Source: a phage
Sequence record: PZ445416.1
Length of the DNA stretch: 50,192 nt
Strand: one strand, 5' to 3'
The notes under the pieces are model-generated. The model was not told where the DNA came from. It searched no databases and saw nothing but the letters and a program-made list of their open reading frames with translations. A program made the position numbers and the translations under genes. Each line of letters begins with the position of its first letter. Position 1 is the first letter of the stretch. Shown here piece after piece: positions 5,338 to 48,405 of the stretch.

Positions 5338-6105
5338 ATGGCTTACGAAAATTTAATGTTGCGCCCGGCGTGTCCGGGAAATCTTTCTGATACTTCAACC
5401 TACAATATTGATGGCGCTTGCGTGGCTCAAGGTGACATTGAGTTCGGCGCGGCGGTTCAGGTTGTCGGCATCGTTGATGGTGTAAAAGTCGTCAAAGTAC
5501 TTTCTGATGGCGGGACTCCTTACGGTATCGCTTTCCGTTCTCAATATGAACACCTGAGCGGTAAAATTCTCGACGGCGAAGTTTGCAACGTCGTTTCTCA
5601 CGGTCGCATGTGGGCGCTTACTTCTCTTGATGAGGCTCCCGGCTTGTTCTCAAAGTTGCAGTTTGGATCTGGTGGAGTTGTTACTGGTGGGTCTGGTTCC
5701 GCAGGATGGACCTTTGCTGGCGGCTTTGTTAAGCACGAAGACGGGCACATTATTGAGGTTCAGGTGAAACAAAATGCTTTCATCGTTCCACCGCCGCCGC
5801 CCCCTGTTGTTCTTGTTGAGTCCGCTACAATCACCACTGACAAGGAAAGTCCTCAACCAAACAATGTTACGATCCAGTGTGTAGCTAATGCTCTTCCGGC
5901 TAATGCAACCGATAAGACTGGTAAATGGTCAATCGACGCTACCAATATCGCCACTGTCGATCCGGACTCAGGTCTTGTAACTCCCGTTGGTGGAGAGGTA
6001 GTCGGTGATTTCAATATTACCTGGACGGCTAACGATGCCAGCAAGACGACGGCAACCATTGCTTATCGCGTAGAAGCAGTGCCAACGCCAGAGGTTGATG
6101 CATAA
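5338..6105 (+). CDS. capsid-associated protein, paralog B with C-terminal Ig-like extension
   Basis: 255 aa; N-terminal 150 aa paralogous to 4800-5276, then a PPPPPP linker and a beta-rich domain resembling bacterial Ig-like (Big_2) folds. Confidence 0.5.
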   Translation: MAYENLMLRPACPGNLSDTSTYNIDGACVAQGDIEFGAAVQVVGIVDGVKVVKVLSDGGTPYGIAFRSQYEHLSGKILDGEVCNVVSHGRMWALTSLDEAPGLFSKLQFGSGGVVTGGSGSAGWTFAGGFVKHEDGHIIEVQVKQNAFIVPPPPPPVVLVESATITTDKESPQPNNVTIQCVANALPANATDKTGKWSIDATNIATVDPDSGLVTPVGGEVVGDFNITWTANDASKTTATIAYRVEAVPTPEVDA

Positions 6106-30455: not shown

Positions 30456-30703
30456 TGAGCGAAAAAATGGTTCCTGTTAAATTAACTGAGCAAGGTTTAT
30501 GGCTACTTTATCGAGCTACGTGCTGCGAGATTATGGAGCGAAATGGATTGACTAAGGATGTTATTGGTTGCGATCTGTGGGAGTTCACTAGTTCTCTTGA
30601 TATGTCTTTCGAAGAGATAAGGAATGAATACATTGAGAATTGGCCATTAATCATCCAAAAAGACGTAGAAGAACTTTCTTCTGAGATAATCACACAGCAC
30701 TAA
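30452..30703 (+). CDS. hypothetical protein
   Basis: Start at MMSEK after GAGGAAAG, overlapping the dam stop; 83 aa. Confidence 0.45.
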   Translation: MMSEKMVPVKLTEQGLWLLYRATCCEIMERNGLTKDVIGCDLWEFTSSLDMSFEEIRNEYIENWPLIIQKDVEELSSEIITQH

Positions 30704-31461: not shown

Positions 31462-31539
31462 GACTTTATTTTGCTGTAGTATTAACACCGCTAATTTCAT
31501 TTTCAGTAATGTATTTCATTATCATGTAAGGATTAAAAT

Positions 31540-32691
31540 ATGTCACAATCTAAAATCACTACCGAGCAACTTATCGAAGAACGCATGAACGGACTTACAC
31601 TTCGCGAGATCGCGGAAAAGTACGGTATGCACATTCGCACGGTTGAAGCTCGCCACGCAAAATTGGCAAAAGAAGGCCACTTCCACGGTAACGAGCATGT
31701 CGCTAAGAACGTACCGGAAGGATTCATGGTAAAAGGTACATCAACGATGATTCGCGGAGATGGGACCGAGGTAGTGCGCTGGGTTAAAACCGATCAGGAC
31801 CGTGAGAAGATCGCGGCAATGATGGAAGCGGCGCGCATTGCATTCTGTGAAGACCTGCCGCGAGCAAAGCCAACCGAGCTACTAGCCTCGCAAGGGCTTA
31901 CGACAGCGATGGGTAAGTTGGCGCTCTATCCGGTGTTCGATCTTCATATTGGTGCGCTTGCTCATAAGCATGAATGCGGTGAGAACTATTCCACCGACGT
32001 AGCGGAAAAAGTGCTTAGCGACTTCTTTAATTACGCGATCGATATCGCGCCGAACGCAGAGAAGGCTGTTCTGTTAATCGGCGGCGACTTCCTTCACTCT
32101 GACGGCCTTGATGCAGTTACCCCGGCAAGTGGTCACGTTCTTGATCAGGACTCACGATACGCAAAATTAGTTCATGTTGCGATTCGTTCGGTACGCCGAG
32201 CCATCGACAAAATGCTTATGAAACACAAAGAAGTCGAGGTCCAGGTTATCGAAGGGAACCACGATCAGTCTGGGATGATTTGGCTGCGAGCTGCAATGTC
32301 GGCATATTATGAAGACGAGCCGCGAGTATTCGTTGACGTTAGTCCTATGATTCTGCATAAGACTCGTTGGGGAAATACCTTGCTGGGATACACTCACGGG
32401 CACACTATGAAAAAGGCAGACACGCGACTTGCAGCAATGGCGGCAGATTTCCGGTCAGACTTCGGTGAGAGCAAGTATGTGTATACTCATAGCGGTCACT
32501 GGCATCACCAGACAATCACTGAGCACTCGCTTGGTATTGATGAAGTACACGGTCAGTTAGGCGCGAAAGATGCATACGCCGCGCGAGGCGGGTGGCGCTC
32601 ATATCGCCAGGCGGCGGTAATAGTTTACGATAAACAGTTTGGTGAAATCGGTCGATTCATCTACCGTCCAGAAATGACAGGATCGCACTAA
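31540..32691 (+). CDS. metallophosphoesterase with N-terminal HTH domain
   Basis: N-terminal LTLREIAEKYGMHIRTVEARHAKL is HTH-like; calcineurin-type motifs GGDFLHSDG, EGNHDQ, GHTHG and GHWHH. Confidence 0.65.
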   Translation: MSQSKITTEQLIEERMNGLTLREIAEKYGMHIRTVEARHAKLAKEGHFHGNEHVAKNVPEGFMVKGTSTMIRGDGTEVVRWVKTDQDREKIAAMMEAARIAFCEDLPRAKPTELLASQGLTTAMGKLALYPVFDLHIGALAHKHECGENYSTDVAEKVLSDFFNYAIDIAPNAEKAVLLIGGDFLHSDGLDAVTPASGHVLDQDSRYAKLVHVAIRSVRRAIDKMLMKHKEVEVQVIEGNHDQSGMIWLRAAMSAYYEDEPRVFVDVSPMILHKTRWGNTLLGYTHGHTMKKADTRLAAMAADFRSDFGESKYVYTHSGHWHHQTITEHSLGIDEVHGQLGAKDAYAARGGWRSYRQAAVIVYDKQFGEIGRFIYRPEMTGSH

Positions 32692-44443: not shown

Positions 44444-44650
44444 ATGGCTACACGACTAACTCAGTGGCAGATTTACGACAAGGCCTCACACCTTCGTGAA
44501 TCGCTTCGCGGACTGGCACCGAACGACCGCATGGAGATTATCGGGCACGCATTGCACGAACTCACGTCTCAGGACGTAATCTATCACTCATGCGGCAATA
44601 AATTCTGGAACGTGACATTCGAGGTAAAGAAAGATGAGCAAAACTCATAA
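44444..44650 (+). CDS. hypothetical protein
   Basis: Start moved to MATRLTQ after CCAATCAGAGGA. Confidence 0.5.
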   Translation: MATRLTQWQIYDKASHLRESLRGLAPNDRMEIIGHALHELTSQDVIYHSCGNKFWNVTFEVKKDEQNS

Positions 44651-44921
44651 GTTAAAAATCTCCCCGGTACATTTCATTGGTGTAATGAACGGAACCAAAA
44701 CGGCAGAGTTCCGCGTCAATGACCGCAACTTCCAGGTTGGTGATATCCTTGAGCTACGCGAGTTCGATCGTGACGAGCTTACCGGGTGGGAAGTTCACGC
44801 CAGGGTGTCCGATGTTACAGATGTGACGCCATACATCAATCGCGGTTATGACGAGCAAGAATGCGACTTCACGCAGTACGTGATGTTATCAATCAAGCCC
44901 TACAGGAAGATTAGACCATGA
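44634..44921 (+). CDS. ASCH / DUF3850-like protein (PUA-like fold)
   Basis: HKLKISPVHFIGVMNGTKTAEFRVNDRNFQVGDILELRE resembles the DUF3850/ASCH signature as I remember it. Confidence 0.55.
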   Translation: MSKTHKLKISPVHFIGVMNGTKTAEFRVNDRNFQVGDILELREFDRDELTGWEVHARVSDVTDVTPYINRGYDEQECDFTQYVMLSIKPYRKIRP

Positions 44922-46427: not shown

Positions 46428-46470
46428 TAGCACGAATTGCTAAAACTTGCTCAAGGGTATTTGATAGAAT
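46428..46470 (+). promoter_or_regulatory. Box-A cassette upstream of HAD phosphatase gene
   Basis: TAGCACGAATTGCTA, 22 bp, TGaTAGAAT, leader CCAATCAGAGGA. Confidence 0.6.
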
Positions 46471-46510: not shown

Positions 46511-47122
46511 ATGGATAAAATTACCATTTGGGGACAGACAATCAACCTGTTTCTCGGCACGCGCCGCGTAGCAATCTTTGACTTTGATGGAACACTTAGC
46601 GATGGATCTGGTCGACTTCACCTGCTACCTACAAAGGATTTGCAATTAACTGAAAGCTGGTCCGAGTTTAACCGCGCGGCAATATTTGATAACCCAATCA
46701 AGAGTACGATTGAAGTGATGAACTCTATGTTTGCCGCTGGGTATCATGTGATCATTTTAACCGGGCGAAGTGATGAGGTGCGTTACGCATCTGAGTTATG
46801 GCTTAAGCATCACGGCGCTCGATATGATTACTTAGTCATGCGACCGCATACCGACAACCGCAAAGACACGGTAATGAAAGAAGAGGCAGTGCGCGCGATC
46901 GGCATTGAGAACATTCTGGCGGCCTGGGATGACTCACCGCAAATTATTCCATTATTCCGCTCGCTTGGAATAACAACTTACGCTGTAGTTGACTATGGCG
47001 ATAACGTTCACAATCATTTAAAATCTCACGGGGTAGATGAGGTTTGCAATCATGAACCATCTGAGCCGCTACCGCCATTTGGTGAGAAAATTTGCATTAA
47101 GTGCAAGGAGTTATTGAAGTGA
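46511..47122 (+). CDS. HAD-family phosphatase (polynucleotide 3'-phosphatase-like)
   Basis: N-terminal DxDGT motif (IFDFDGTL) typical of HAD phosphatases such as the T4 Pnkp phosphatase domain; C-terminal CxxC pair. Confidence 0.65.
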   Translation: MDKITIWGQTINLFLGTRRVAIFDFDGTLSDGSGRLHLLPTKDLQLTESWSEFNRAAIFDNPIKSTIEVMNSMFAAGYHVIILTGRSDEVRYASELWLKHHGARYDYLVMRPHTDNRKDTVMKEEAVRAIGIENILAAWDDSPQIIPLFRSLGITTYAVVDYGDNVHNHLKSHGVDEVCNHEPSEPLPPFGEKICIKCKELLK

Positions 47123-47230
47123 ACCTATACGAATTTATTGCATCGCACCCGGTATTGACGGTTATCATTCTGCTAATCATCAATCACACTATCATCAATG
47201 TGGCAAAATTATTTTTAGGGAGATGCTAAC

Positions 47231-47803
47231 ATGAAAACAGCTATCATTTTAAACGGCGCACCTGGTGCGGGAAAGGACACTATCGGATGCATCCTGGCTG
47301 ACACTTACGATCACGTAGCGCTACGCAGCTTCAAAGCGCCAATGTTTGAGATTGCCCGAGCAATCCTGGGTGAGACTAATTTCGAGTATTTCATGTTCTT
47401 GTACGAGGACCGTCGCTATAAAGAAGAGCCAACATCAATCCTGAACGGTAAAAGCCCACGCCAGTTCATGATCTGGATTAGCGAGGAGGTCATCAAGCCG
47501 CAGTTCGGAAATCGCTTCTTCGGTATGCGAGCGGAAAGCAAGGTGAAAGAGTCGCACTCCCTTTCGGTATTTACTGACGGTGGATTCAAAGATGAGATCC
47601 TACAAATGATTGAAGGTGATATCCAGGTTAAGCTATGTCGAATCCATCGCAACGGTTGCAGCTTTGATAACGACAGCCGAGACTATATCTATCTTGACGA
47701 TATGATCGGGGTCAACGGTTATCAGGAATGTGACTTCTTTTCTGTCGAAGGCCATCCAGAAATTACCGCTCAGCACATAGCCGCCACGTTCATCAACAAA
47801 TAG
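47231..47803 (+). CDS. P-loop kinase (polynucleotide 5'-kinase / nucleotide kinase-like)
   Basis: Walker A LNGAPGAGKDT at residues 7-17; 190 aa; adjacent to the HAD phosphatase gene. Confidence 0.6.
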   Translation: MKTAIILNGAPGAGKDTIGCILADTYDHVALRSFKAPMFEIARAILGETNFEYFMFLYEDRRYKEEPTSILNGKSPRQFMIWISEEVIKPQFGNRFFGMRAESKVKESHSLSVFTDGGFKDEILQMIEGDIQVKLCRIHRNGCSFDNDSRDYIYLDDMIGVNGYQECDFFSVEGHPEITAQHIAATFINK

Positions 47804-47843
47804 CACGAATTGCTAAAACTTCGGTGGGGTGATTTGATATAGT
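47801..47843 (+). promoter_or_regulatory. Box-A cassette
   Basis: TAGCACGAATTGCTA (TAG is the kinase stop), 22 bp, TGaTATAGT, leader CATCGACAACGAAGAGAG. Confidence 0.6.
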
Positions 47844-47875: not shown

Positions 47876-48085
47876 ATGATGGTATCAACTGATAAGTTTT
47901 TCACTTGCAATAAAACTTCTGAAGTATTCGAACTGGTTCATACTGATAATGGTGACTTCATGCATGACGGTTGCGACGTTTTCATTGAAGTGAAAGAAAG
48001 CGACTATGACGATGGGGTTTATTATAACCCGGCAGTGAACACTCAGTTTTTTACCCCGATCGAAGATGAAGGAGAAGAAGCATGA
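47876..48085 (+). CDS. hypothetical acidic protein
   Basis: 69 aa, RBS AGAGAGAAA, downstream of cassette 47801-47843. Confidence 0.5.
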   Translation: MMVSTDKFFTCNKTSEVFELVHTDNGDFMHDGCDVFIEVKESDYDDGVYYNPAVNTQFFTPIEDEGEEA

Positions 48086-48405
48086 TCACGATTAACCTGT
48101 CAGATAAACAAGCGCGTGAAATCCTCGACACTATCGGCGAACAGCTTCACGTAAAAGGCGCTACCGCTGAGATTCTTAACCAGATCGAAAGACAGCTAAC
48201 TCCGGTGTCGACGAATCAAGCTGAGTTCGCAGCATGGAAAAGCGAACGCATTACGCCAAATATTATCAAGGCATGGAAGCGCAAGCATAAAAAAGAAATC
48301 AATGTTGAGGATAAGCTAACGGAAGTTTTGAATAACTTCACTAAATATCAAATCGCATACATGGAAAGGGTAACAGGTTTTCATTTAATTAGTGGGGATA
48401 AATAA
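48082..48405 (+). CDS. hypothetical protein
   Basis: 107 aa, start overlaps upstream stop. Confidence 0.5.
   Translation: MITINLSDKQAREILDTIGEQLHVKGATAEILNQIERQLTPVSTNQAEFAAWKSERITPNIIKAWKRKHKKEINVEDKLTEVLNNFTKYQIAYMERVTGFHLISGDK

Follow-up and report, generated by a model that had tools for sequence, protein, structure and literature searches.

A stand-alone Pnkp-type phosphatase paired with a dNMP kinase family protein, and probably not a split tRNA-repair enzyme, in a T1-like coliphage

The window analysed here, a stretch of 50,192 nucleotides (PZ445416.1), has the genome type of a T1-like coliphage (Tunavirus/Drexlerviridae), and the 1.7-kb locus of interest is 93–95% identical to its counterparts in Escherichia phages CLB_P3, JMPW1, ADB-2 and many others (~50 kb). 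Two genes lie there on the + strand, each starting with ATG and preceded by a Shine-Dalgarno sequence (AGAGGA and GGGAG, respectively): one for a Pnkp-type HAD phosphatase of 203 aa (46511-47122), which has no kinase domain and carries a DFDGT motif at residues 24–28, and one for a predicted dNMP kinase of the T4 gp1 / T5 Dnk / Rao1 R1DNK family (47231-47803), 190 aa long and with a GAPGAGKDT motif at residues 9–17. A sequence-only reading of this DNA had described a HAD phosphatase with a DxDGT motif followed by a 190-aa P-loop kinase, and both open reading frames, their coordinates and motifs were recovered; the 110 bp given for the spacing is close to the 108 nt (47123-47230) that we measured. 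Judged by Pfam and PHROG scores, neither assignment is a chance match. Neighbouring early genes encode a DUF3850/ASCH-like small protein (44634-44921, + strand, 56.6 bits) and a DUF7180 protein (48082-48405, + strand, 108 bits).

Between the two genes, a 36-aa ORF (47119-47229, + strand) runs from a GTG start codon overlapping the phosphatase stop (GTGA) to a point 1 nt short of the kinase ATG. It encodes a hydrophobic helix, HPVLTVIILLIINHTIINV, and is referred to here as a putative small membrane-protein ORF; it had no match in Pfam or PHROG. Its protein sequence is kept in relatives with or without the zinc-knuckle-like phosphatase tail described below, the start codon being ATG in the tail-less variant. 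In some T1-like relatives (L008 and L010, ~5528-5995), a homing endonuclease gene with HNH_3 and AP2 domains sits exactly between phosphatase and kinase, displacing the small ORF region and widening the gap to 486 nt.

A conserved 19-mer element is present in six copies on the + strand of the window, starting at 30697, 42056, 44363, 45910, 46430 and 47803, compared with 0.05 copies expected by chance. The element is laid out as ATAGCACGAATTGCTAAAAC, ~14 nt and then a sequence like TGATATAGT, and aligning the copies yields an invariant block and an extended −10-like TGnTAnAnT. At the upstream border of the phosphatase–kinase cassette (46430-46470, + strand), the 19-mer GCACGAATTGCTAAAACTT followed by the extended −10-like TGATAGAAT begins just past the stop codon of the preceding gene, while at the downstream border (47803-47843, + strand) the 19-mer and TGATATAGT begin at the TAG stop of the kinase itself. 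In all three copies checked (44363, 46430 and 47803), the start coincides with the preceding gene's stop codon or follows closely behind it, suggesting that the early region is divided into cassettes. Repetition and position indicate that the copy at 46430 is probably an early promoter for the phosphatase–kinase unit, and that at 47803 probably the promoter of the next unit. The border elements escaped a simple sigma-70 scan for promoters because TTGCTA and the −10 are 22 nt apart; given this spacing, the 19-mer may instead be the site of a regulator. Neither a copy of the element nor a + strand terminator-like site was found between phosphatase and kinase, so phosphatase, 36-aa ORF and kinase look like one transcription unit.

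The phosphatase matches Pfam HAD_PNKP (PF25109) with 61.2 bits (E 1.6e-16; profile positions 3-141 of 143), well above the curated cut-off of 27.6 bits, and phrog_415 at 1.6e-66. Pairwise, it matches T4 PseT with an E value of 6e-9 over 155 aa, and in a fold comparison solved Pnkp phosphatase domains were closest to it, those of T4 PseT (PDB 1LTQ) and bacterial Pnkp1 (PDB 4XRP) being of the same family and fold. Residues D24, D26, R35, R86, D119, D140 and D141 align with D165, D167, R176, R213, D254, D277 and D278 of T4 Pnkp, all seven of which we confirmed in the T4 sequence and which mutagenesis by the Shuman laboratory reportedly found essential. Every one of the essential T4 residues is thus conserved here, and across 39 aligned homologues the seven positions are invariant or nearly so. 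Unlike the present protein, T4 Pnkp carries a kinase domain of the Pnkp type, whereas the kinase encoded next to this phosphatase comes from a different P-loop family; T4 Pnkp also lacks both the insert of ~15 residues that follows motif I here and the optional C-terminal tail.

That tail (residues 179–203; 47045-47119, + strand), CNHEPSEPLPPFGEKICIKCKELLK, has a C-x-H...C-x-x-C pattern resembling a mini zinc knuckle, and is a putative metal-binding module modelled with low pLDDT. It is found in some homologues only, in two sequence variants scattered across the family (P0101, P0104, P0126, P0128, P0129, P0142, P0109, P0140, P0146 and P0180, and at L097 3384-3995), including an Autographiviridae phage; the phosphatase of Erwinia phage S2 has the same kind of tail. 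Among close relatives it behaves as a 72-bp indel, and the phosphatase of T1, at 176 aa, is without it. The family comprises 2618 phage records. Databases commonly call its members ‘polynucleotide kinase’ or ‘3'-phosphatase, 5'-polynucleotide kinase’, misnomers for a phosphatase that has no kinase domain. PHROG 415 is itself labelled ‘polynucleotide kinase’, yet it includes phosphatase-only proteins as well as the 5'-dNMPases T5 Dmp and VPG01 Dmp, and its label spreads a wrong product name through many phage annotations, such as those of these ~180-aa proteins.

The kinase was identified only through PHROGs, fold comparison and the literature. It matches phrog_139 at 1.7e-46 (profile positions 82-260), in line with the scores of reference members T4 gp1 (1.8e-65; 83-261), T5DNK (1.4e-51) and R1DNK (5.7e-44), and is 43% identical to R1DNK over 183 aa (E 1.7e-46), 47% to the DNK of Escherichia phage KarlJaspers (bas06_0076, QXV82329.1) and 45% to that of Klebsiella phage VAC2. 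Its GKD P-loop contains K15, which like R61 is conserved in all six kinases aligned; D116 and E122 are also conserved. In a fold comparison T4 dNMP kinase was closest to it, although identity to T4 gp1 (PDB 1DEK) and T5 Dnk is 19–21% and T4 gp1 has an insertion of ~40 residues that is absent here. Pfam DNMK (PF21448) gave no match at E<=0.1, but R1DNK, experimentally a dNMP kinase, likewise fails this model and T5 Dnk matches it partially, making it too narrow to settle membership. No above-threshold match was obtained in NCBIfam or Pfam, and whether the query was the kinase sequence alone or a profile of 38 sequences, searches of solved-structure sequences returned generic P-loop matches only. 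The family is nonetheless large, with 1428 phage records and 2635 cluster representatives at E<=1e-3 in a search of 1.8 billion representatives. Together these comparisons point to a dNMP kinase of the T4 gp1 / T5 Dnk / R1DNK family, an activity demonstrated in orthologues. A DNA-level kinase like 5-hmdU DNA kinase was also considered; no hydroxymethyl-dUMP pathway is annotated in relatives.

Resemblance to the kinase of T4 Pnkp, on the other hand, extends no further than the P-loop. There was no match to Pfam AAA_33 (E<=0.1) or phrog_505 (E<=0.01), the families that T4 PseT matches through residues 1-150 (5e-23 and 1e-125, respectively), and hhalign aligned the kinase with T4 PseT over residues 1–25 only. 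The acceptor-site residues D35 (the general base) and R38, confirmed in the T4 sequence, have no counterpart in the kinase, whose family instead has an invariant SFKxPMF at this place. Its nearest structural neighbour is not a polynucleotide kinase, and T4 Pnkp was not among the best 50–60. The likeness to a T4 Pnkp pair that had been proposed from sequence alone therefore holds for the phosphatase half, through HAD_PNKP and fold, and fails for the kinase half, which matches phrog_139 and neither AAA_33 nor phrog_505.

Coupling of the two genes was assessed across 80 viral loci whose kinases are related to the present one at 40% identity or more. The phosphatase is upstream on the same strand in 69 of them, and in 27 of those 69 it abuts the kinase start, with an ATGA overlap in each of the six junctions read. 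The search of 1.8 billion representatives also retrieved two fusion proteins (P0206 and P0218) in which HAD_PNKP, a linker and the kinase form a single chain. These are 37% identical to each other over their full length, and since the linker is conserved and one of the fusions was recovered from three contigs, among them a phage contig of 60 kb, the phosphatase–kinase fusion is an established architecture and not an artefact. We considered whether the two genes might be mere neighbours in a mosaic early region, with unrelated functions and an order owed only to common ancestry. Each gene does occur without the other, as in kinase-only loci and in phiEc3, which has only the exonuclease and the phosphatase; several small ORFs separate the pair in TLS and KarlJaspers, and homing endonucleases have inserted between them. 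Against this stand two divergent fusions with a common conserved linker, the 27 loci in which the phosphatase abuts the kinase start, and recurrence of the pair in the unrelated families Drexlerviridae and Autographiviridae, and we judge this reading to be quite improbable.

A third gene often accompanies the pair. The phrog_704 ‘DNA repair exonuclease’ (31537-32688, + strand; ~383 aa; phrog_704 E 1.3e-157) has an N-terminal LuxR-type HTH and metallophosphoesterase motifs, and the T1-like phrog_704 proteins had no Pfam match. Its gene lies 14 kb from the pair in the present genome, but directly upstream of it in 32 of the 80 loci, in Rao1 (gp56) and in the Autographiviridae phage Erwinia S2, an arrangement thus found in more than one phage family; in phiEc3 it precedes the phosphatase alone, and in L002 it follows the fusion gene. 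The protein encoded here is 40–65% identical to these flanking counterparts in Rao1, phiEc3, Erwinia phage S2 and L002 (counterparts at L093 3694-4827, L097 2213-3337 and L002 7340-8500). Phosphatase and kinase, often joined by the phrog_704 metallophosphoesterase, define a three-enzyme module.

T4 Pnkp works with an RNA ligase partner, and the present pair is without one. The reported lack of an RNA ligase nearby was borne out: tblastn with T4 Rnl1 and T4 DNA ligase (gp30) against the window, at a sensitivity that would miss very remote ligases, returned nothing significant (best E 0.023, inside a tail gene), and the fully annotated relative EF3-1 (92% identical) has no ligase and no polymerase. 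ARAGORN found no tRNA gene in the window. The kinase belongs to the dNMP kinase family, neither ligase nor tRNA gene was found in the window, and the pair is most unlikely to be a tRNA-repair enzyme in two parts; the evidence does not bear out the attractive idea that a T1-like phage conceals such a repair system. As far as the published data on orthologues go, which cover mononucleotide substrates, the kinase would have the nucleoside monophosphate specificity that tells against a split Pnkp kinase, and the alternative offered alongside it, nucleotide metabolism, agrees with the phosphorylation of dNMPs by those orthologues.

A wider form of the idea, in which 3'-phosphatase and 5'-OH kinase constitute a split end-healing enzyme (fused in some phages) for DNA nicks or cleaved tRNA, with a host or phage ligase sealing the break, is in our estimation very unlikely. 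It is favoured by a phosphatase that is Pnkp-type in sequence and fold, by the zinc-knuckle tail on some of these phosphatases and by the phosphatase-before-kinase order, seen here and in the natural fusions, which is also that of mammalian PNKP (FHA-phosphatase-kinase); the mammalian kinase domain, however, is a true polynucleotide 5'-kinase, whereas the phage family is one of dNMP kinases. Furthermore, in nine of the 80 loci, all of the non-Drexlerviridae kind (L044, L050, L060, L070, L072, L074, L076, L079 and L080), the gene immediately downstream of the kinase encodes an ATP-dependent DNA ligase, and in four of these nine phosphatase, kinase and ligase stand in a row, as in Erwinia phage S2; Klebsiella Molineuxvirinae have the order metallophosphoesterase-kinase-ligase (ligase arrangements also at L097 3384-5530 and L099 3762-6362). 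In Autographiviridae-type relatives the kinase–ligase junction is often a stop/start overlap, and kinase and ligase are preceded either by the exonuclease and the HAD phosphatase or by a different metallophosphoesterase. Nevertheless, five of the nine ligase loci have no HAD phosphatase, and the ligase-adjacent kinases are 40–46% identical to R1DNK and so members of a family with demonstrated dNMP kinase activity. A kinase that transfers phosphate to a phosphate oxygen performs a different reaction from one that acts on a 5'-hydroxyl, and few active sites do both. The P-loop-only alignment of the kinase with T4 PseT, in which D35/R38 find no counterpart, the absence of T4 Pnkp from its best 50–60 structural neighbours, and the absence of both ligase and tRNA gene from the window likewise count against end healing. 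T7-like genomes pack all their DNA-metabolism genes together, and in T7 ligase 1.3 lies near dNMP kinase 1.7. The ligase behind the kinase may be either a matter of ordinary class II gene order or a sign that the three genes work together. We therefore do not accept the Autographiviridae ligase as proof of end healing, HAD phosphatase being missing from five of nine loci and the kinases being as close to R1DNK as the present kinase is. We find it similarly hard to credit that phosphatase and dNMP-kinase-fold protein are physically united in an enzyme that, besides phosphorylating dNMPs, heals DNA breaks with 3'-phosphate and 5'-OH ends. The two would associate as a complex in the present phage and be joined in one chain in phages such as those encoding P0206 and P0218; the enzyme would be a Pnkp analogue built independently from a dNMP-kinase scaffold, passing its products to host LigA in the present phage and, in Autographiviridae relatives, to the phage DNA ligase whose translation is coupled to that of the kinase.

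The cassette of T1-like coliphages is already known, and the function of the kinase is established in orthologues. The KanT1 paper observed that ‘PNK’ and ‘dNMP kinase’ often follow a DNA repair exonuclease and proposed that they boost nucleotide supply, and the TLS paper lists PNK and dNMP kinase and notes that in T1 and TLS infections host DNA is broken down and its nucleotides are reused; our literature search found no papers on stand-alone Pnkp phosphatases or on dNMP-kinase escape mutants. Rao1 gp58 (R1DNK) phosphorylates dAMP, dGMP, dCMP, also dTMP and, weakly, dIMP with ATP, and is the trigger of the Kongming defence system; K15A abolishes its effect, and escape mutants include R61Q (10.1101/2024.12.20.629578). 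DNKs of Escherichia phage KarlJaspers (Drexlerviridae) and Klebsiella phage VAC2 trigger Kongming too, and deletion of the kinase from Rao1 moderately lowers dATP during infection at no measurable fitness cost (10.1101/2024.12.20.629578). Rao1 has the same gene order as the present phage, with gp57, a HAD_PNKP protein annotated ‘polynucleotide kinase’, encoded directly upstream of gp58, 49 nt apart as against 108 here. Gp57 is 57% identical to the present phosphatase and gp58 43% to the present kinase, with which it has catalytic K15 and escape residue R61 in common; in contrast to the present locus, phrog_704 exonuclease gp56 is immediately upstream of the Rao1 pair and not 14 kb off, gp57 has no zinc-knuckle tail and no small membrane ORF separates the genes.

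A different candidate substrate for the phosphatase is suggested by the same study, which found T5 Dmp and Vibrio VPG01 Dmp to be 5'-dNMPases and anti-Kongming factors (10.1101/2024.12.20.629578; DNK and Dmp sequences compared here were taken from its supplement). Both Dmps fall in phrog_415 alongside the present phosphatase (3.6e-57 and 1.9e-39, respectively), and all catalytic motifs are common to them (DxDGT-x6-[GH]R, T[GA]R, [RS]KDxxxK and DD), as is the cap-like ~15-residue insert after motif I, which the stand-alone phosphatases have and T4 Pnkp does not. T5 moreover encodes Dmp and Dnk from the same PHROG pair (415 and 139) in one genome, although T5 dmp is not linked to dnk and the two differ in the timing of their expression, whereas the genes described here adjoin; the T4 gp1 gene, too, is not linked to a phosphatase gene. 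In a Vequintavirus (Escherichia phage isim, L098 3992-5193), a kinase of the same family overlaps an NT5C-type 5'-nucleotidase gene, and in the T4-like Krischvirus ECD7 (L095 3841-5474) a second stand-alone HAD_PNKP gene overlaps the nrdB stop. Such pairing of kinase and phosphatase seems to recur in gene clusters for nucleotide metabolism. The isim pair adjoins thymidylate synthase and NrdD, and ECD7 also carries full pseT and rnlA. The phosphatase might then be a deoxynucleotidase like Dmp that hydrolyses 5'-dNMPs in general or only some of them (dIMP, dUMP or dAMP, for instance), a reading we consider possible but rather doubtful. Its direct similarity to the Dmps is weak (T5, BLAST E 0.27; VPG01, E 7e-4 over 74 aa), T4 PseT being a much clearer match (E 6e-9 over 155 aa); the family profile of the phosphatase scores VPG01 Dmp at only 16 bits, and both Dmps miss Pfam HAD_PNKP. 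A coupled or fused 5'-dNMPase and dNMP kinase would also make a futile cycle unless their specificities differ. Finally, dAMP rises when Rao1 infects, the phage is Kongming-sensitive, and T5 Dmp in trans rescues it (10.1101/2024.12.20.629578); as this happens with gp57 present, gp57 does not deplete dAMP effectively in vivo. The phosphatase was accordingly rejected as a simple equivalent of T5 Dmp, its similarity being marginal and Rao1, with an orthologue, needing T5 Dmp in trans.

On balance, and with moderate confidence, we favour an overall reading in which phosphatase, small membrane ORF and kinase make up an early unit acting on deoxynucleotides and not on broken tRNA, and the cassette most likely helps to recycle the breakdown products of host DNA. 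Phage degradation of the host chromosome would yield dNMPs, which the kinase would convert with ATP into dNDPs, a step demonstrated for orthologues, and host NDK would turn these into dNTPs for phage DNA synthesis. The likeliest role for the phosphatase, tentatively held, is that of a Pnkp-type HAD phosphomonoesterase stripping 3'-phosphates from DNA-breakdown intermediates: its substrates might be 3'-phosphorylated ends or oligonucleotides, deoxynucleoside 3',5'-bisphosphates or 3'-dNMPs, and once the 3'-phosphate was gone, the phrog_704 enzyme or other exonucleases could complete degradation and supply 5'-dNMPs to the kinase. The tight genetic coupling, including fusion in some phages, would on this proposal follow from a common pathway. 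A polynucleotide or 3'-phosphate substrate is suggested by the family and fold of the phosphatase, by the exonuclease gene that often accompanies it and by the zinc knuckle present in some members, whereas the insert and PHROG in common with Dmp argue for a mononucleotide, possibly a 5'-nucleotide. The usual DNases of E. coli and of phages generate ends with a 5'-phosphate and a 3'-OH, which counts against a 3'-phosphate role. Given that Rao1 loses no measurable fitness with its dnk, the contribution to salvage may be small in laboratory conditions. Were the Dmp-like reading true instead, phosphatase and dNMP kinase would balance or sanitise the dNMP pool, and may blunt nucleotide-sensing defences of the Kongming type. 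For the kinase, the consequence is more immediate: it belongs to the family that Kongming exploits to make dITP, and phages like this one should therefore trigger Kongming.
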